Assembly: GCA_041310935.1 (NCBI GenBank)
Contig: JBFYWS010000621.1
Coordinates: forward strand, 1 to 60,469
Source: Desulfobacteraceae bacterium
Lineage (GTDB): Bacteria; Desulfobacterota; Desulfobacteria; Desulfobacterales; SpSt-501
DNA: 60,469 nucleotides
Direction of reading: 5' to 3'
The position numbers and the translations under genes were made by a program. Below the pieces are notes generated by a model. The model was not told where the DNA came from, ran no database searches, and saw only the letters and a program-made list of their open reading frames with translations. This document shows, piece after piece, positions 32,763 to 46,648 of this stretch (positions are counted from its first letter, which is position 1; the number at the start of each line of letters is the position of its first letter).

Positions 32763-33592
32763 AGATCACTCCTTCACTGGGCAGCGCGTACCCTCTTGTT
32801 GGGGCTACAGAACAGGCCGCACCTATCCTGCGCCAGTTTCGCGTACTCCGGGTTCAACTCGACCAGGATGCAGTCCCGTCCGTTGCTGGCGGCTACCTCG
32901 CCGGTTGTGCCACTGCCGCCGAAGGGGTCAAGGACTGTGCCCGGCTTCGTCGCGCCGTTGCAGGAGCAGGTCGGGCGGTGGCCGATAGTGCGGGACGTGT
33001 CAGCATCGAGGGCGCGCCATCCGGGTTGGTGCGACGACCTACCTCGAGGCGTGCATGTGTGCCCTATTGCCAGCCGTGATGGGTTGATCGTTTTCGCCCG
33101 CCCGCCAGGTTCCTTCTCCGTGACCCGTTCCCACGGCTTCCCGCACACCGCGCAGACCTTCGACGGGCATCCTGCCAGGATGCAGGGCCGGATCAGGGCA
33201 GGCGGAAATGTGGCGAAGTGGGCCTCGCGGTAGGGTGCGGTCGGGACCGTCCAGACGGAGCGGCGGTTGCGGGTAGCGTATGTCGCGCTTCCGGGGCGAA
33301 TCCCCGCCACATCTCCCGTAGGCATTCTCTTCTGTTCGGGAGCCGACCTTGCCTTTCTGTCGTCGTCCGGGTACACGCTCGGCTCAGAAATAGCCTCCGC
33401 GTCGTAGTAGTACCGCGCCGACTTCGACAGCAAGAACAGGTACTCATGGGACTTGGTGCATCGGTCGGTAACGGACTCCGGCATCGGGTTCGGTTTGGCC
33501 CAGATGATGTCCTGCCGCAGATACCAGCCGTCGGCCTGCAACGCAAACGCCACGCGCCAGGGGATGCCTACCAGGTCTTTGGGTTTGAGGTG

Positions 33593-33621
33593 TTGACTCC
33601 ATCCGGCGTCCGTGGTACATT
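33593..33621 (+). promoter_or_regulatory. Sigma70-like promoter of the HNH cassette (TTGACT, 17 nt, TACATT)
   Basis: TTGACT at 33593-33598, TACATT at 33616-33621, AGGAGG at 33637-33642, ATG at 33649. Confidence 0.5.
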
Positions 33622-33648
33622 CTGGATGAACTATACAGGAGGTGTCCG

Positions 33649-34161
33649 ATGAAACGCGAAGCGAACAACTCTCGGAAGTGCATCGAATGTGGCGCGGAGG
33701 TTCCGCGCAAGGTGAAGCGGTGCTCGCCGTGCAACTCGGCTTTTCTGTTGCGGCGTCCGACGTACCAGCGAACCGATGAGCACAAGGAATTGATGAGCGA
33801 ACGGTTGACAGGTCAGCCCCACACATGGCGCAGCGCCAGCGAGACGCCGGAAGTTGCGGCGAAGATTCGGGCGTGGTGGACTCCTGAACGCAGAAGCGCG
33901 AAGTCCGAGGCGATTGCGAATCGCGGTCGTTATCACGGACTGTCTCACGGAAGGCGAAAGCAGATGGTTGCGGAAGCCGGGAAGTGCTCTCGCTGCGGGA
34001 CCGCAACACGCCGACTAGACACCCATCACAAAGACAGGGATACTCGCAATCAAAGCCCGGCGAATCTGGAAGTGCTGTGCCATCGGTGCCACATGCAGGA
34101 GCATCGGGCCGAGATTGGATGGGCGGCGTACCACAAGGCGCGCGGGACGGGCAAGCGGTAG
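33649..34161 (+). CDS. HNH homing endonuclease (N-terminal zinc ribbon, NUMOD3-like repeats, C-terminal HNH)
   Basis: CIECGAEVPRKVKRCSPCN; TDEHKELMSERLTG / TPEVAAKIRAWW; CSRCGTATRRLDTHHKDRDTRNQSPANLEVLCHRCHMQEH. Confidence 0.85.
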   Translation: MKREANNSRKCIECGAEVPRKVKRCSPCNSAFLLRRPTYQRTDEHKELMSERLTGQPHTWRSASETPEVAAKIRAWWTPERRSAKSEAIANRGRYHGLSHGRRKQMVAEAGKCSRCGTATRRLDTHHKDRDTRNQSPANLEVLCHRCHMQEHRAEIGWAAYHKARGTGKR

Positions 34162-34690
34162 ACCCTCGGCATGTTCGTTGCTTCGGGCCTGCTGAATCCG
34201 TTGCCTTTCTTTGTCCGGGTTGCGACATGAAACTATCGCCTATGTTCAAAAACAGAACGCCGTCCGGCCTCAGCAATCTCCGCACCTCACGGAACACGGC
34301 GACCAGGTTGACGACATAGGCTTCGGGCGTGGGTTCAAGTCCGATCTGGGCGTCAATGCGACGGGCGCCGCACTTGCGACACACACTCGCGTCAACACCG
34401 GGACGCTGGCCGGTAGTGATTGCGCCCGGAGCTTTGCTGTCCTGCACCTGTCCGCCCACCGAATGCTCGCACCCCGCATCCCCGCCTTCCCACGTCGCTG
34501 TTCCGTAGTCTCTGAGGCCGCATGTTACCAGTATGGCGGACTCGTCACTACGCAGTTGACGCTACAGTCAGGCAAGGTTTTCAGGACTTGCCTACAATCC
34601 CCGGTGAGGATTGTCACCATACTTTTACCCTCCTTTCTGGTTGATGAGTTTGAACAAGCGCCTTCAGACTACGCCGCTATCGCGGCGCGT

Positions 34691-34852
34691 CTAATGCGCG
34701 GTGTTGGCTTCATCATGTTCTCGCCCAAGTATTCCGATCACCACAAGCAGGTCATCGCGATCCATTTCGCCGACACGCATTCCGTCGATCACGGATGTTT
34801 CAGCTTCTTGCTTCAGCTTCTCGGCATCCAGCCATTCGATCATCATCTTCAC
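34691..34852 (-). CDS. Small hypothetical protein (53 aa)
   Basis: GTG at 34852, 6 nt after AAGGAGG (34865-34859). Overlaps the 3' end of the Lar-like ORF. Confidence 0.45.
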   Translation of the reverse strand: MKMMIEWLDAEKLKQEAETSVIDGMRVGEMDRDDLLVVIGILGREHDEANTAH

Positions 34853-35105
34853 GACAATCCTCCTTGGCCTGTACTCTGCGGTTCCATTTCGCGGCAGCCT
34901 CCGCCCGGTCCTCACATGGCGCAGTGTTCAGGTCGCAGCCGAGGCACGCCACCATCCAGTCACACGGCCCCACTTCGTCGTGTAACTTGGCCTCTCCCCC
35001 ACAACACGGACAGGCCAACAAAGGAATCGAGCGCGACGGCTCACCCGCCGCCGCTTCATGCCCGCAAGTGGGGCACCTGGTAAGTCCGCAGTTGTGTTCC
35101 GTCAC
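34800..35105 (-). CDS. Lar-family restriction-alleviation-like protein
   Basis: LLACPCCGGEAKLHDEVGPCDWMVACLGCDL...EDRAEAAAKWNRR matches the Lar CPxCG...C..C...eAi..WNrR pattern. GTG start after GGAG. Confidence 0.6.
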   Translation of the reverse strand: MTEHNCGLTRCPTCGHEAAAGEPSRSIPLLACPCCGGEAKLHDEVGPCDWMVACLGCDLNTAPCEDRAEAAAKWNRRVQAKEDCREDDDRMAGCREAEARS

Positions 35106-35315: not shown

Positions 35316-35569
35316 CGTTCACCGCCTTTCAGATTCGGAGTTCCAACATCGGCCTGCACGCTACCGTCGCTCCGCTCCGGCGCGTGAGGCCGGGCGTTGG
35401 CGGCAAGCCGTTCCTCGATGCGTTCAAGAACCTTCAACGTTTGCACTTGGATGCTCATGGACAGTAGCGTAATGGCGGATGCCACCTTCAGCGACCCATT
35501 GTCGCCCTGTTCCTTCAGCACCGCTGTTACATCCTTCAGTGATTCCAACGCTTCTTCCCATGCTTTCAT
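35312..35569 (-). CDS. Hypothetical protein (85 aa)
   Basis: ATG at 35569 (MKAWEEALESLKD) after a GAAAGGAGAAC RBS. Confidence 0.5.
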   Translation of the reverse strand: MKAWEEALESLKDVTAVLKEQGDNGSLKVASAITLLSMSIQVQTLKVLERIEERLAANARPHAPERSDGSVQADVGTPNLKGGER

Positions 35570-35580
35570 GTTCTCCTTTC

Positions 35581-35611
35581 GCGCTGGCTGACGGAAACCG
35601 CCAACCAGTGC
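35581..35611 (-). repeat. Intergenic hairpin (14-bp stem), one copy of a repeated gene-junction element
   Basis: Minus strand: GCACTGGTTGGCGG-TTT-CCGTCAGCCAGCGC, followed directly by the RBS. Homologous to 51523-51554. Confidence 0.6.
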
Positions 35612-35626
35612 AGGCACCGTACGTCG

Positions 35627-35995
35627 CTACGCGCCGAAGGTGCTGCTTTTGTTGGCCTTCCTCCACGGCACGATCTTCGCGCCTGCGGGCAGAGCGTTTC
35701 TCGGCAGCAGCTTCTCGACGCCGACGCCCCACAGGTTCGCGTCCTTCCGCAATGGCTCCCGCTTGTCGCCTGGGCCAACGACAAAGCACGCCTGGTGCAG
35801 CATGTAGCAGACGACGACCCCGCGACTCCACGTATTCGCGGCGGCGTCCCCCTCGCGGAGCAGAACGAGGTCGCCGAGGTGAAAGCGGCAGCATCGGTTC
35901 AGTTGGTCAATCGCCTCTCGCGCAGGCGTGCCGGCTTCGGACTTGTCGGCCCCGTATGCGGTCAACACGTCGATCAGTCGCTTCAGGTCGATCAT
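35627..35995 (-). CDS. Hypothetical protein (122 aa)
   Basis: ATG at 35995 in an ATGA overlap with the upstream stop. The track gives a longer 36019 start. Confidence 0.5.
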   Translation of the reverse strand: MIDLKRLIDVLTAYGADKSEAGTPAREAIDQLNRCCRFHLGDLVLLREGDAAANTWSRGVVVCYMLHQACFVVGPGDKREPLRKDANLWGVGVEKLLPRNALPAGAKIVPWRKANKSSTFGA

Positions 35996-37338
35996 CTCTC
36001 CACCGTGCATGACTGCCATCCTTTCTTGCCCGGCGCGTCAGCCGGGGCGTTCGGCCATTCCCTTCGCTTCCACTCCTTCCGCTTGTCGAAGAAGCACGGC
36101 GACTCTGCCGCCAGCGCGTCAATCCATGCGTCGTCACAGGGACGGGCCTTCGGGCCGGTTTCTGGGCCGGCAATCACGAGATCCAGGTACGCCCCTTGAT
36201 GATGTCCCAAATCGTCTGGTACGCGACCCCGTGCTCGCGCGCTAGTGTCGCAATCATTCGTCCATGCCGCGTCTTCATGTCTCGCATGATGTACTCCGCA
36301 TAGGTTCTGATTCGCTCCACGTCTTTCGCGGTCAACTTGCTCTGGCAGTTCTTCTCGCCGTTCTGATCGGCGGCCTTGCCGACTTTCAGAACTCTGACCG
36401 CATGAATGTTGTTCTGCGAGTAGGTAACTGCCTCCAAGTTGTCCGGGTGATTGTCGTCCTTGATCCCGTTCTTGTGATTGATCGTCATCCCGTGTGGTAT
36501 CGTCCCGACTAGCGCCATGTAGACAATCCTGTGCGCCCCTATGTGATGCCTCTGTCCGCGAATCATCATTCGCACCTGAAGGTATCCCTGCGGCATCCTG
36601 TGTTCCGCTCGTTTCGGGGCAATGCTCCTCACCAGTACCCGTTCTTTGCTCCATCGGTTTCCGCTTCTGTTGGTGCAGCGCCATATCGCCCCCGATTGAT
36701 CCACCCTCAACTCTCCGCGCCGTATCGCTGCCATAATCTCCGCCTCGCCCGCATGGTTGGTTTTCATAGCGTGGCATACTACCAGGGCACAGGAACCGAG
36801 TCAACGTAATTTTTTCGAGCAATGGTTCGCACGATACGAACCGCACCGCTGCCGGGATGCTCAACAGGATCGGTATTCGCTCTTCGGCTCGCGCCTGGTT
36901 CTCGACCGTCACGCCCAGCCACACGTTCGACCACGCGATAGGGCCTCCCGCTTTCGTGCATCGCTTGAAAAACTCTGCCATTTGTTGCGGACGCTTCGTC
37001 AGCACGAGGTATGTATGCGGACTCGGTTGGAGTAGGTCGGGGTGCATGGCGTTGAATATCTGCATGATGGTCTCATCCTGCAAAGACTCATGGAACAGGT
37101 CCGACATGGGCGCGACGAACACCCGGCAGGGCTTGCGCGTGTGCGCGGGCATGTCGAGGTTCTCCGGCAGGAAGTGCGGCTCGCCCCACGGCGGCAGGCC
37201 CATGTATTTGGCGAAGCGATGATGCCAGGATGCGGCGTAACAGTTCATGCACCCCTCGCTTGCGGCCGAACATCCGCGCAGGATCGGCCATTGCTGGTCT
37301 GCCCAGGGTATGTCTGTTTTCGGAAGACTTTTGTTCAT
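35992..37338 (-). CDS. Phage Gp37/Gp68-family (DUF5131) protein gene, interrupted by an HNH cassette of about 610 bp but still open in frame
   Basis: ATG at 37338. DIPWADQQWPILRGCSAASEGCMNCYA...VFVAPMSDLFHE...LVLTKRP...NVWLGVTVENQ...RFVSCEPLLEKITL, then about 200 aa of junk read-through, then LDLVIAGPETGPKARP...CFFDKRKEW. The first 72 codons of track ORF 35992..37554 look spurious. Confidence 0.75.
   Translation of the reverse strand: MNKSLPKTDIPWADQQWPILRGCSAASEGCMNCYAASWHHRFAKYMGLPPWGEPHFLPENLDMPAHTRKPCRVFVAPMSDLFHESLQDETIMQIFNAMHPDLLQPSPHTYLVLTKRPQQMAEFFKRCTKAGGPIAWSNVWLGVTVENQARAEERIPILLSIPAAVRFVSCEPLLEKITLTRFLCPGSMPRYENQPCGRGGDYGSDTARRVEGGSIGGDMALHQQKRKPMEQRTGTGEEHCPETSGTQDAAGIPSGANDDSRTEASHRGAQDCLHGASRDDTTRDDDQSQERDQGRQSPGQLGGSYLLAEQHSCGQSSESRQGRRSERREELPEQVDRERRGANQNLCGVHHARHEDAAWTNDCDTSARARGRVPDDLGHHQGAYLDLVIAGPETGPKARPCDDAWIDALAAESPCFFDKRKEWKRREWPNAPADAPGKKGWQSCTVER
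36174..36767 (-). CDS. HNH_3-type homing endonuclease with a C-terminal HTH-like tail
   Basis: GYLQVRMMIRGQRHHIGAHRIVYMALVGTIPHGMTINHKNGIKDDNHPDNLEAVTYSQNNIHA. Confidence 0.85.
   Translation of the reverse strand: MKTNHAGEAEIMAAIRRGELRVDQSGAIWRCTNRSGNRWSKERVLVRSIAPKRAEHRMPQGYLQVRMMIRGQRHHIGAHRIVYMALVGTIPHGMTINHKNGIKDDNHPDNLEAVTYSQNNIHAVRVLKVGKAADQNGEKNCQSKLTAKDVERIRTYAEYIMRDMKTRHGRMIATLAREHGVAYQTIWDIIKGRTWIS
36190..36805 (-). mobile_element. HNH homing-endonuclease cassette (own promoter, near-leaderless ORF) inserted in the Gp37/Gp68-family gene
   Basis: Family homology breaks after EPLLEKITL (about 36802) and resumes at LDLVIAG (about 36186). The interval is almost filled by the HNH ORF, in another frame of the same strand. 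Confidence 0.7.
36776..36804 (-). promoter_or_regulatory. Sigma70-like promoter (TTGACT, 17 nt, TAGTAT) driving the HNH ORF, with an upstream A-tract
   Basis: Minus strand: GAAAAAATTACG TTGACT cggttcctgtgccctgg TAGTAT gccacgct ATG. Confidence 0.5.
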
Positions 37339-37366
37339 CGCCCTTTGCCCTTCATGTTGTGCCCGC

Positions 37367-37972
37367 TCAGAACTCCCTCGCGTATTCCGCGGCTTGCGTG
37401 ACAGTCGCCCGCTGTTGGGGATGCCCGATGGTCTTGCAGAACTCGTCGTATGCCTTGGCGCGTTCGTACTCCTCGCCGACGGCCAGACCCGCCGCATTGA
37501 TCGCGCCGTTCTGCCGGCGGGCCAAATCGAACAGTGCGTCGGGACTCCTGCCAAAGTAGGCTTCCGCCTCGTGGCCGGCCCGGCACCGGCATGCGATCAT
37601 CAGGACGCGGCGGCATACGAGGTCCGGTATGGTCCAGGGCGGCTCCGGGTTGTCGGGGTATACCGCGATGTGCCCATTGCAGCAGAGGTCGCAGTCCTGG
37701 GGTTTACCTTCCGCCCGCTTGGGACTCTTGGCCCATCGCGCCTTGATGATGGCGCTCTTGAGTTGCGGGCCGGTTGGGGCCTTGAGGCGCTGGCCCTTGT
37801 CCCTCGCTTCTTCGGCCAGCGTCTCTATTGCCTGTCCGAGTTCATCCCCGCTCCATCCGCGATCCGTGCCATGGGCAGGGAACTGGTCGTCGAGCCACCT
37901 TTCCAGGGCGGTGCCCTCGGCCTCGTCCATCGTAAACCCGCAGCATATTCGCCAGTGCTCAGTCCACTTCAT
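37367..37972 (-). CDS. Hypothetical protein (201 aa)
   Basis: ORF track; 1-nt TGATG overlap with the upstream gene. Confidence 0.55.
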   Translation of the reverse strand: MKWTEHWRICCGFTMDEAEGTALERWLDDQFPAHGTDRGWSGDELGQAIETLAEEARDKGQRLKAPTGPQLKSAIIKARWAKSPKRAEGKPQDCDLCCNGHIAVYPDNPEPPWTIPDLVCRRVLMIACRCRAGHEAEAYFGRSPDALFDLARRQNGAINAAGLAVGEEYERAKAYDEFCKTIGHPQQRATVTQAAEYAREF

Positions 37973-38772
37973 CAGTCCCTCCCTTCAAAGCGTTCACGCC
38001 TTGGCGCCCGCTGAAGTGGGGGCACGTATGGCGCGTACTCGTCGTCCCAGCAGGCGTTGTTGAGCCATGTGGCCGGCAGCTTCGTCTTGTCTATCGGCGT
38101 GCTCCTGTCCCGGCAGGCAGTGGCGTAGCGGTTCGACCCCGTGATGATCTTCTGGGCGTCCACCCCGGACGCCAGCGCCGCCTTCCATGACTCCCAGGCT
38201 GTCTTCTTGGCCTCGCGCCGCGGGTAGGCCTGCCAGAAGGCGTCGAACTCCGGCGAGTAGTCAGGGATGATGCTCGCCTTCTTGGGCCTCGCGGGTTTCC
38301 CCCCCACAACCCCCTCTTTCTCAGAAGAAGACTCTTCAGAAGCAGAAGAAGAAGCATAAGCAGAAGCAGGGTTAGCACGCGGTAAATCCGTGTAAACGTT
38401 TTTGTTTACATCGGCGCGGTAGTCCCGCATGTATTTCCGCATGTAGTGACGCCGATCTTCTTCGCTCCGCATCCCGCGATACCGTTCATGCGTCACCACA
38501 AAATATCGCAACCCGCCAGAATGAAGAAGCCTACGCCCTTCGTGGTCCTTGCATTGAGAGTCCGGGTCAGGCGATAGCAGAAACTCAATTGCACTTCTGA
38601 CTTCCGCTTCCGTGATCTTTCCGATCTTGGCTACCAGAACGCTGGGATTCAAAAGCACGGTATGATCTTCAGGGTCGGCTTTGGCGCAGCAGTATCCCCA
38701 CACCGCCAGCACGATGGGTCCGCTCCCGGCCATTGACCCTTCATACACGGAGTCGAACCACTTGCCGTACAT
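37972..38772 (-). CDS. Replication initiation / replisome-organiser-like protein
   Basis: N-terminal wHTH-like region and C-terminal FDAFWQAYPRREAKKTAWESWKAAL...TWLNNACWDDE, a pattern I associate with phage replication organisers. Confidence 0.45.
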   Translation of the reverse strand: MYGKWFDSVYEGSMAGSGPIVLAVWGYCCAKADPEDHTVLLNPSVLVAKIGKITEAEVRSAIEFLLSPDPDSQCKDHEGRRLLHSGGLRYFVVTHERYRGMRSEEDRRHYMRKYMRDYRADVNKNVYTDLPRANPASAYASSSASEESSSEKEGVVGGKPARPKKASIIPDYSPEFDAFWQAYPRREAKKTAWESWKAALASGVDAQKIITGSNRYATACRDRSTPIDKTKLPATWLNNACWDDEYAPYVPPLQRAPRRERFEGRD

Positions 38773-38988: not shown

Positions 38989-39699
38989 TTATCCCTGACT
39001 CCGCGGGTTGTGCGTCAATGGCAGCCGCCCCTGCCGCAGTTCGTTTTCCAGCCGCGCCCGTGCCGTGGCGAAGTGCCCGGCGTCTATCTCGATCCCGATG
39101 AACTTGCGCCCGGTCCTGATGCACGCGATTCCCGTTGTGCCGCTGCCCATGTACGGGTCGAGCACGGTCGCGCCTTCCGGCACCTTAGCCCGATCCATCG
39201 TCCATTGCATGATTCCGACTGGCTTCTGTGTCGGGTGAAGCCTGTTCGATGATTCCCCGTTCATGGATGTGTCCCGGCGGCAGTAAACGCCGTGTCCGCC
39301 CTTCACCCATGCAAGCTCGGCGTCGGACAGGAACGTACCGAACGCCGGGTCAAGACGCTTGATCCAGACCAACGTTGTCCCCACCGGCACGCGGGCGGAG
39401 AAGTGGTTTCCACCCCACAGCCCCACCGAGGGGAAGTCCAGCCAAGGCGCAGGGTCGAACGCTTCGCGGTCGCCATGCACCGGCTTGAAATCGTTTCGCC
39501 CTTGGCGGCCACGCGCTTCTGGATTGTGCCCGCCAGTGAACCGGCGCGAGTTGACGTTCCAATCCATGCCGTATGGCGGATCGGAAATCACGGCATCGGC
39601 CTCAATCGGAAGGCACGCCCGGCAGTCGCCGAGGATGATGGTCACGGAATCGGAAAGACGCACAACGACTGGTTTCTGCCTATCCTTCTGTCTGTCCAT
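38989..39699 (-). CDS. DNA methyltransferase (N6-adenine/N4-cytosine, DPPY type), intact
   Basis: AVISDPPYG ... HPTQKPV ... VLDPYMGSGTTGIACIRTGRKFIGIEID. Confidence 0.85.
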   Translation of the reverse strand: MDRQKDRQKPVVVRLSDSVTIILGDCRACLPIEADAVISDPPYGMDWNVNSRRFTGGHNPEARGRQGRNDFKPVHGDREAFDPAPWLDFPSVGLWGGNHFSARVPVGTTLVWIKRLDPAFGTFLSDAELAWVKGGHGVYCRRDTSMNGESSNRLHPTQKPVGIMQWTMDRAKVPEGATVLDPYMGSGTTGIACIRTGRKFIGIEIDAGHFATARARLENELRQGRLPLTHNPRSQG

Positions 39700-45382: not shown

Positions 45383-46648
45383 TCAGTTCTCCTTGATCTT
45401 GGCGCAGAAGTCGGCCAACTGCCCATCCGTTAGGCTGTCCAGGTCATCAACTGACGGCAGCTCCATGGCGGCCAAAACCCGTTTCCGCGGTCCAACCGGC
45501 GCGATGCCTGCCAGCATTTTCGCCTCTTTCAGAAGGTCCTCCCTGTCGGGCGTGGCATCCTGGCCCTTGTCATCCCCCTGCTCAGCCCCGTCCGACGCGC
45601 TGGCGCCCCCCTGGGGGCTTTCAGCCGCGGCAATAGCGGTGACGTTCCGGTACTTGCCGTCCTGAGTCCATGTCAGGGTGACTTTCTGCCCTTTCAGCCG
45701 GACAGCCTCGGCACCAATCGTCTTGTCAAACGTACCGTAACGCTCATCGCCAATGTAGAGTCCATAGCCGATGAACGGGCCGCGGGCGTTTTTCCCCGGC
45801 TTCTCCGTCACCTTTTCCAGCACGCCGGTAACGGTGTTATCGCCGTCCGCGGAAGGTGTCGAAGCCTCCTTCGCCTTGGCCTTCTCGCCTGTGGGTGCGG
45901 GAGGCGTCATCGTCTCCCTGGCCGGCGGGAGCGCCTGCGGCTCCATGATCGGGGTACGGTCCTCTGGCAAGGCGAGGCCGAGGGCTTGGTTGTCGTAAGC
46001 GATAGCCGTCTGCAACTGGGGCGAGGCGGAAAACACCTTCAGCGCCCGTTTCACGACCGTCTTGATCCGCATGGCGTCGGCGTCAGTCACCCACGGCCCT
46101 TCGTCCTTGGCCTTGCTGCGGTTCTGGATGGCGTCCAATTCCTCCCGGTTCATCCATTCGATGTGCTTGGAGTCGTCGGGCAGGACGCAGACGCAGTAGG
46201 CGCCCACGGTTTCCCCGCGATCCTTCAGCGCCGGCTTGTGGGTGATACTGGGGGCATCGCCAAGCTGGTAGTCGAAAGCATCGTTCGCCTTCACGACTTC
46301 GCCATAGGCGTGCTTGATCTGGCCGACTTCGTTCCCAGGCCCCGGCTTCTTCGCCAACTGGATCATGCCTCGCCAATCCGGGATAAAGACGACTTCCTTC
46401 TTCCCGGTGTACTTGTTCTTGAACGGCACGGCCCAACAGCCGCCCGCGCCAATCGGCTCTAACCCTGTCTCCGCAGACCGCAGACAGAAGTTGAGGAAGC
46501 TCTCCTTCGTGCATTCCAGCAACGCGGGCTGACGCGAGGTTGCCGACAGCATCAGGTGAACCAACCGCTCCACGCTGAACCACTTGGGAGCCACGCTCTG
46601 AAACGCCGACTGCGACTGCACCAACAACGCTTTGAGATCATCTGCCAT
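45383..46648 (-). CDS. recT: RecT-family single-strand annealing protein with a C-terminal extension of about 180 aa
   Basis: SFLNFCLRSAETGLEPIGAGGCWAVPF...VVFIPDWRGMIQLA...AYCVCVLPDDSKHIEWMNREELDAIQNRSKA...PWVTDADAMRIKTVVKRALK. Confidence 0.8.
   Translation of the reverse strand: MADDLKALLVQSQSAFQSVAPKWFSVERLVHLMLSATSRQPALLECTKESFLNFCLRSAETGLEPIGAGGCWAVPFKNKYTGKKEVVFIPDWRGMIQLAKKPGPGNEVGQIKHAYGEVVKANDAFDYQLGDAPSITHKPALKDRGETVGAYCVCVLPDDSKHIEWMNREELDAIQNRSKAKDEGPWVTDADAMRIKTVVKRALKVFSASPQLQTAIAYDNQALGLALPEDRTPIMEPQALPPARETMTPPAPTGEKAKAKEASTPSADGDNTVTGVLEKVTEKPGKNARGPFIGYGLYIGDERYGTFDKTIGAEAVRLKGQKVTLTWTQDGKYRNVTAIAAAESPQGGASASDGAEQGDDKGQDATPDREDLLKEAKMLAGIAPVGPRKRVLAAMELPSVDDLDSLTDGQLADFCAKIKEN

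Follow-up and report, generated by a model that had tools for sequence, protein, structure and literature searches.

The usual view is that an endonuclease gene that moves into an essential or conserved gene spares its host only with the help of an intron or an intein. The HNH endonuclease I-HmuI of Bacillus phage SPO1 (PDB 1u3e), for example, is intron-encoded, and inteins with a homing endonuclease are translated together with the host protein. In Aeromonas phage Aeh1, the nrdA gene is reportedly split by mobE, a free-standing homing endonuclease gene, with the host made as two separately translated polypeptides (a stop followed by a restart). A very recent concept is that of the ShiLan domain, described computationally in mycobacteriophage DNA methylases, where an HNH endonuclease is hidden out of frame (Gosselin et al. 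2023, PMC9957025; Arsenault, Gosselin & Gogarten 2025, PMC11855218). Here, we describe a locus of this type in a stretch of 60,469 nucleotides (nt) from a Desulfobacteraceae bacterium (contig JBFYWS010000621.1 of assembly GCA_041310935.1, hereafter the window), in which an I-HmuI-like HNH gene lies inside a gene of the DUF5131 family. We put at roughly 0.75 the probability that it is a nested out-of-frame homing-endonuclease element, the host being translated through the insert without RNA or protein splicing.

The locus resembles the ShiLan domain in several respects. ShiLan is likewise an in-frame, stop-free insertion of ~200 codons into a phage gene that is conserved; nearly all of the insert is taken up by an HNH in another frame, with its stop at the very end; intron and intein signatures are absent, the distribution is patchy, the in-frame product is predicted as a loop and leaderless initiation is proposed. 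Other features set the two apart. The ShiLan host is an N6/N4 methylase and its HNH is flanked by zinc fingers, whereas here the host is DUF5131 and the nuclease is an I-HmuI-like HNH_3 with a C-terminal helix-turn-helix. Moreover, the register found here, in which the host frame is the HNH frame minus 1 nt (host = HNH-1), differs from that of ShiLan. ShiLan starts at a GTG, with no promoter described, whereas here an ATG lies behind a conserved sigma-70-type promoter; unlike ShiLan, the DUF5131 element uses two insertion sites and has hosts across several bacterial phyla. In the sections consulted, PMC11855218 makes no mention of DUF5131, of promoters or of a permutation test of stop avoidance. 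Apart from the ShiLan papers and a RadicalSAM.org listing, a literature search on DUF5131 insertions and on homing endonuclease genes that are nested or overlap a host gene yielded nothing.

The locus also shares features with the other known systems. The nuclease is of a family homologous to that of I-HmuI and, like it, presumably homes into an uninterrupted conserved phage gene; whereas I-HmuI is intron-encoded, no ribozyme was detected around the open reading frame (ORF) here, and the host frame is kept open instead. As in Aeh1 nrdA/mobE, a homing endonuclease gene lies within a conserved phage gene and no splicing would be involved, but here the host has no stop and a single polypeptide is predicted. 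As with inteins, the element adjoins conserved motifs and would be translated with the host protein; however, its endonuclease is out of frame, and it has neither Hint splicing blocks nor a junction nucleophile. The features of the locus are as follows.

35992..37338, minus strand: host read-through ORF, DUF5131 (Gp37/Gp68, radical-SAM superfamily), 448 codons plus stop, stop-free across the insertion.
36790..37338, minus strand: N-terminal host segment, amino acids (aa) 1-183, with C-x6-C-x2-C, TKRP, NVWLG and FVSCEPLL; profile positions 1-167, 168 bits.
36187..36789, minus strand: insertion of 603 nt, equal to 201 host-frame codons (aa 184-384); hydrophilic and predicted disordered in the host frame.
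36776..36804, minus strand: sigma-70-like promoter, with -35 TTGACT at 36804-36799, a 17-nt spacer with TG, and -10 TAGTAT at 36781-36776.
36174..36767, minus strand: nested HNH_3/I-HmuI-like homing endonuclease ORF, 197 aa, in the +1 frame relative to the host (host = HNH-1).
36174..36176, minus strand: HNH stop TGA, spanning V388 (GTG) and I389 (ATT), two host codons in the conserved WVIAG/LVIAG motif.
35992..36186, minus strand: C-terminal host segment, aa 385-448 plus stop, with LDLVIAGPETG...R...FFDKR...RREWP; profile positions 175-223.

The host gene is a single minus-strand ORF that opens with an ATG at 37338, closes with a stop at 35992-35994 and encodes 448 aa. Residues 7-178 match profile positions 1-171 of Pfam DUF5131 (PF07505), and the last 65 aa give a separate match to profile positions 175-223. 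The score is 186 bits for the unspliced protein and 200 bits, in one continuous match, once the insert is deleted (cut-off 28.9). This match above the cut-off extends over both host halves, and the Cys-rich N-terminal motif is present. In alignments with homologues, C23, C30 and C33 are invariant in DUF5131, and the family-invariant residues are kept in the C-terminal segment. At the block boundaries, FVSCEPLLEKITL ends near 36800 and LDLVIAG begins at 36186. This agrees with an initial annotation of the window, made from the letters alone, which had proposed a continuous ORF at 35992-37338 with family motifs running to about 36802 and resuming at about 36186. A fold search with DUF5131 gave spore photoproduct lyase, a radical-SAM enzyme, as its best structural match, which fits the assignment of DUF5131 to the radical-SAM superfamily (PMC9477430). 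By sequence, the spliced host protein had no match in the PDB.

The conserved blocks FVSxEPxL and (D)WVIAGPETG are 5-40 residues apart in uninterrupted homologues and ~200 apart in the window (alignments with 12, then 71 homologues). The insertion thus sits at the position of a loop whose length is small and variable in homologues without an interruption, and the insert is absent from them. Almost the entire insert is taken up by the nested ORF (594 nt around a 603-nt insert), with ~22 nt outside it at the 5' end and 0 nt at the 3' end. The nested product matches Pfam HNH_3 (PF13392) with 51.1 bits against a cut-off of 24.8 (E = 1e-13), which together with its +1 frame upholds the initial assignment of an HNH_3 ORF at 36174..36767 on the same strand but in another frame. 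It also matches PHROG 59 (E = 3e-32), the profile of its family (alignment A2) matches I-HmuI (PDB 1u3e, E = 4e-8), and H98, N110 and H122 are invariant in that alignment. The C-terminal helix-turn-helix (GV.YQTI..I.RG.RW) is present in a free-standing relative (locus L006) as well, and is native to the HNH family. In other copies inserted at the same site, the HNH stop is TGA, TAA or TAG and likewise falls inside the V/I-I host codons. The identical arrangement was found in loci L002 and L003, assemblies from two separate sequencing runs, which rules out an assembly or frameshift artefact.

Automatic gene calls are available for L002 (3138-4484) and L003 (2364-3710), both contigs being identical to the window, and for L004 (68-1342), and they report the HNH, starting in L002 and L003 at the second ATG (186 aa). 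Beyond it, these calls give no more than a spurious antisense ORF or a C-terminal piece of DUF5131 of 67 aa, and the read-through host gene is left uncalled.

A stop in the host frame is possible only where an HNH codon ends in T and the next codon begins with AA, AG or GA (hereafter, a risk position). In the HNH of the window, T is present at 0 of 53 risk positions, compared with 20 of 143 other positions. When synonymous codons were shuffled within this ORF, 4.5 host-frame stops were expected, and the probability of observing none, P(0), was 0.002-0.004. In the other genes of the window, 9.3% of risk positions carry a T (261/2796), giving a P(0 of 53) of ~0.006; general TpA avoidance or codon-pair bias is therefore insufficient.

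We then examined related loci. Database relatives of the HNH and a scan of viral contigs with the HNH alignment yielded 18 distinct nested copies in metagenome and viral contigs (33-70% HNH identity). A further 8 came from bacterial genomes, scanned with each GTDB species represented once, and belong to Planctomycetota, Spongiactinospora, Spirillospora, Vicinamibacterales, Binatia, Gemmatimonadota, a Bacillus metagenome-assembled genome and Phenylobacterium. Nested status was judged by tblastn matches to DUF5131 flanking the HNH, independently of frame openness. All 26 nested copies, the window included, have the register host = HNH-1 and zero host-frame stops across the HNH. Their guanine-plus-cytosine (GC) content ranges from 0.45 to 0.69, and the loci at 0.45-0.52 are equally stop-free. 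Across the 18 permutation-tested copies, ~107 stops were expected and none was observed: T occupies none of the 870 wobble positions at risk, compared with 446 of 2468 positions elsewhere (18%), and the per-copy P(0) ranges from 0.03 to <0.0002. The HNH-2 frame of the same copies holds 7-20 stops. Moreover, 11 non-nested related HNH genes (L006, L014, L015, L018, L025, L091, L094 and L101-L104) carry 6-21 stops in the HNH-1 frame, near expectation. That every nested copy is stop-free, low-GC loci included, when non-nested relatives have stops argues for selection over chance, and at the level of sequence comparison the host frame is shown to be maintained stop-free by selection. The initial annotation had suggested selection to tolerate the insert at the protein level, and for the DUF5131 locus this suggestion is supported.

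The register itself may have a simple basis. In the window, six Met-(I/M/T/N/K) pairs make unavoidable stops in the HNH-2 frame, including ATG-A at the start codon. With the fixed -1 register, we infer that a silent change of wobble T to C may suffice to remove each potential host-frame stop. Every host codon has as its middle base the first base of an HNH codon, which is seldom T, and this would account for the few hydrophobic residues in the host-frame peptide.

Among invaded DUF5131 genes, which come from very different subfamilies and are in some cases only ~30% identical to one another, the family motifs are kept in both halves (C-x6-C-x2-C, TKRP, NVWLG..E.Q..A..R, F.S.EPLL, GGESG..ARP and F.KQ). 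No Met is present among the host-frame residues just upstream of LDLVIAG, in a check confined to Met and thus apart from GTG/TTG starts and a ribosome-binding site; this makes read-through the likely route for ribosomes to reach the C-terminal half. The host-frame insert peptide contains 11% hydrophobic and 73% disorder-promoting residues and is less conserved than the nuclease: in representative pairs, identity was 70, 50 and 45% in the HNH frame compared to 40, 30 and 27% in the host-frame translation of the insert. In an AlphaFold2 model of the read-through protein (72-sequence alignment), aa 1-185 and 385-430 pack as one domain with a predicted local distance difference test score (pLDDT) >90, and the insert, between strands 165-170 and 387-390, has a pLDDT <50 and no secondary structure over residues ~190-381. 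The simplest reading is that the product is probably a single polypeptide of ~50 kDa with a long disordered loop of ~200 residues, through which the ribosome would pass and with which the host protein would function.

How the endonuclease would be expressed is suggested by the promoter. TTGACT-17-TAGTAT is the sole sigma-70-like site in 35500-38000, and its -10 hexamer ends 8 nt upstream of the HNH ATG, as initially annotated. This geometry is conserved across copies. A match of at least 9/12 to TTGACA-17-TATAAT, with the -10 ending 7-8 nt before the ATG, was found in 11 of 18 nested copies, compared with 0.4% of positions drawn at random from these loci. The ATG is not preceded by an evident Shine-Dalgarno sequence. 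Since the -10 ends 7-8 nt before it, the promoter geometry suggests a transcript start at or next to the ATG, that is, a predicted leaderless HNH mRNA. In nested copies, TTGAC often coincides with the host codons at the (V/I)DL position, and in the window the -35 overlaps the (V/I)DL / TLT codons, so that the host sequence seems to supply the -35 element.

The nested copies use two insertion sites. Site A, that of the window, is flanked by the blocks EPLL...(V/I)DL..W and WVI(A/C/G)G(G/P)E(S/T)G, and site B, used in L013, L019, L021, L028 and L096, lies between the TKRP helix and the WPLPNVWLG strand. In the AlphaFold2 model, both are loops ahead of beta-strands (139-144 for one and 387-390 for the other). 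The distribution of the element is patchy, and the degree of identity of the HNH does not follow that of the host. P0001, the closest host homologue (65% identity), has no interruption. The host of L004 shares only 48% (by tblastn) to 60% (by local alignment) identity with the N-terminal part of the host in the window, yet its HNH is 70% identical. In L001 (238-1011, protein P0003), DUF5131 seems uninterrupted, with a linker of normal length. However, the +1 frame of this linker still reads ...RYGVSYQTVWDIIRGRTWIS*, the intact C-terminus of the HNH, and the upstream TTGACT is kept; the linker is thus an in-frame deletion scar of the element, 57 nt long. Related HNH genes are also found free-standing directly downstream of an intact DUF5131, with a normal number of -1-frame stops (L094 1665-3100, L014 1951-3618 and L018 2075-3684), and this may be the precursor of the nested arrangement. 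In L020 (1082-3049), DUF5131 was invaded twice, at site B (HNH ~1566-2036) and at site A (HNH 2190-2771), and the host frame is open across both. Taken together, these patterns would fit a homing cycle of invasion, persistence and decay.

It should be noted that in L022 (2983-3399) and L097-L100 the nested HNH ORFs are only 136-138 aa long and align by tblastn to residues ~8-127 of the window HNH, apparently without the C-terminal helix-turn-helix region, while the host frame is still stop-free. These could be decaying elements or a shorter functional variant.

No cultured phage with the nested arrangement was found by INPHARED blastn or by tblastn with the HNH. At the DNA level, the sole blastn match of the region in INPHARED was one of 110 nt to Microcystis phages, lying within the N-terminal part of DUF5131, and hence there was no close relative among deposited phages. 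At the protein level, tblastn with the HNH was empty at 1e-15 and gave at 1e-6 only relatives of ~27-38% identity, annotated as free-standing or intron-type.

An I-HmuI-like HNH gene has entered a variable loop of a DUF5131 radical-SAM-like gene, and we propose that it is spliced out neither as RNA nor as protein. Host ribosomes would read straight through in their own frame, giving a 448-aa protein whose conserved halves are linked by a hydrophilic, disordered loop of ~200 residues. Selection keeps the host frame open, for which it is enough to avoid a wobble T before codons that begin with AA, AG or GA, at no cost to the endonuclease, and this cost-free avoidance may explain why the register is constant. 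The endonuclease would be made separately, from the internal promoter and a leaderless mRNA. The element owes its compactness to the host codons, which give the HNH stop (GTG ATT) and appear to give the -35 (TTGAC in VDL-type codons). Presumably, DUF5131 alleles that lack the insert are cut or nicked by the enzyme, and the element would spread by homing.

Several points weigh against this proposal. The nested copies share ancestry, so that their per-copy probabilities are not fully independent, even though synonymous sites are saturated at these divergences. A good promoter match is missing from 7 of the 18 nested copies. In the N-terminal part of the doubly invaded L020, a TGA replaces the conserved Gly of WTGK; it is a nonsense mutation or a sequencing error and, if the former, invasion may sometimes be costly. 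Lastly, an unrecognised ribozyme lying wholly inside the ORF would escape Rfam.

Among the alternatives, the one that survives best is that the frame is kept open for reasons other than the protein, either to avoid Rho-dependent polarity on downstream genes or because host-frame ribosomes throttle the HNH. The host gene is indeed followed on its strand by several small ORFs, and on the long transcript no Shine-Dalgarno sequence is obvious at the HNH ATG. However, the conservation of both host halves across very divergent invaded genes argues for selection on the protein, and if there were a stop, translation of the HNH would anyway cover the stretch that follows it. We consider it improbable as the whole explanation, and polarity or regulation is a possible contributing factor.

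A self-splicing intron (group I, group II or undescribed) that carries the HNH ORF and is removed from the mRNA is very unlikely, although I-HmuI-type HNH genes are classically intron-encoded, as in the 1u3e match, and phage introns often break conserved genes. A search of 35500-37900 with Rfam covariance models gave no intron match at E <= 10 (only a spurious microRNA), and none of 16 nested loci had one at the gathering score (only a transfer RNA elsewhere). With ~22 nt (5') and 0 nt (3') outside the ORF, and the HNH stop sitting in exon codons, little is left for an intron, and the initial view that a classical group I intron is hard to fit is borne out. Moreover, an intron offers no reason for the absence of stop-creating wobble T in the exon frame (0/870), or for a 57-nt scar kept in frame in L001.

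Removal or neutralisation of the translated insert at the protein level, by an unconventional intein-like reaction or by loop proteolysis, seems just as unlikely. It would share with inteins a host frame that is translated through and an insertion that adjoins conserved motifs. Yet Pfam finds only DUF5131 on the read-through protein and no Hint or intein domain, and the endonuclease is out of frame, as the initial annotation had already held against an intein. In addition, the host-frame peptide is only 27-40% identical between copies and predicted disordered, and the downstream junction (L/W/V/I) has no conserved Cys, Ser or Thr nucleophile.

The weakest alternative, also left open in the initial annotation, is that the open frame is a chance effect of GC-rich codon usage and that DUF5131 was merely disrupted, or is in pieces, through a free-standing homing endonuclease gene; high-GC DNA does often have long open alternative frames, and -1-frame stops in background genes are somewhat below the permutation prediction (ratio 0.74), but the stop-free state of 26/26 nested copies down to a GC content of 0.45-0.52, the stops in 11/11 non-nested relatives and a C-terminal segment with its invariant residues and no Met just upstream in the host frame make this highly implausible.

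Two further candidates were rejected. An assembly frameshift that conceals an in-frame intein does not agree with 26 nested copies all in the same register, and for a programmed frameshift joining the N-terminal part of DUF5131 to the HNH there is no evidence, the HNH having its own conserved ATG and promoter.

The initial annotation also pointed to a methyltransferase gene of the window as a second, independent stop-free insertion. A tblastn search of the window for a second HNH copy returned only a weak HNH-motif ORF at this locus, whose features are as follows.

32774-34459, minus strand: N6_N4 DNA methylase ORF, 561 aa, with an in-frame insertion of ~200 aa.
33649..34161, plus strand: HNH-motif ORF in the methylase (HHKD...NLEVLCHRCH), on the strand opposite to the methylase.

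The methylase frame is indeed open through the insert. However, the HNH-like ORF runs on the opposite strand and has no Pfam match at E <= 0.001, and synonymous permutation gave a P(0) of 0.16, not significant alone. Because of the opposite strand and this P(0), the locus is unusable as independent support; it may represent the same strategy in antisense, or chance.

Other genes nearby encode a Lar-like restriction alleviation protein (34800-35105, minus strand), a second, uninterrupted N6_N4 methylase (38989-39699, minus strand) and a RecT recombinase (45383-46648, minus strand). This is a phage-like early or recombination-region context.

Until now, the read-through alternative to introns and inteins was based on visual inspection of a few mycobacteriophage methylases. 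The window locus and its 25 relatives place this architecture in a second, unrelated host family and in a different HNH lineage, with quantitative evidence of selection. Classed by its architecture, the element would be a new member of the ShiLan type, with a new host family, a different HNH lineage and selection supported directly by statistics. Rather than founding a category of its own, it extends a very recent concept with strong comparative statistics. The findings suggest a rule for the fixed offset, namely that the -1 register lets silent wobble changes avoid every potential stop, and the internal leaderless promoter is a possible route of endonuclease expression. They also reveal a blind spot of annotation, as on contigs identical to the window the gene calls gave only the HNH and missed DUF5131. 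The two insertion sites mark loops of DUF5131 that apparently tolerate an insert of ~200 residues, which could aid the engineering of radical-SAM-like enzymes. More broadly, we lean slightly towards the view that read-through is a general third mode by which homing endonuclease genes reside in coding genes, beside introns and inteins: a 1-nt offset would give a disordered loop and silent stop removal, the host would lend the -35 and the stop, a leaderless mRNA would serve the endonuclease, and one I-HmuI-like lineage would have used two DUF5131 loops across many phyla while being systematically hidden from gene callers.

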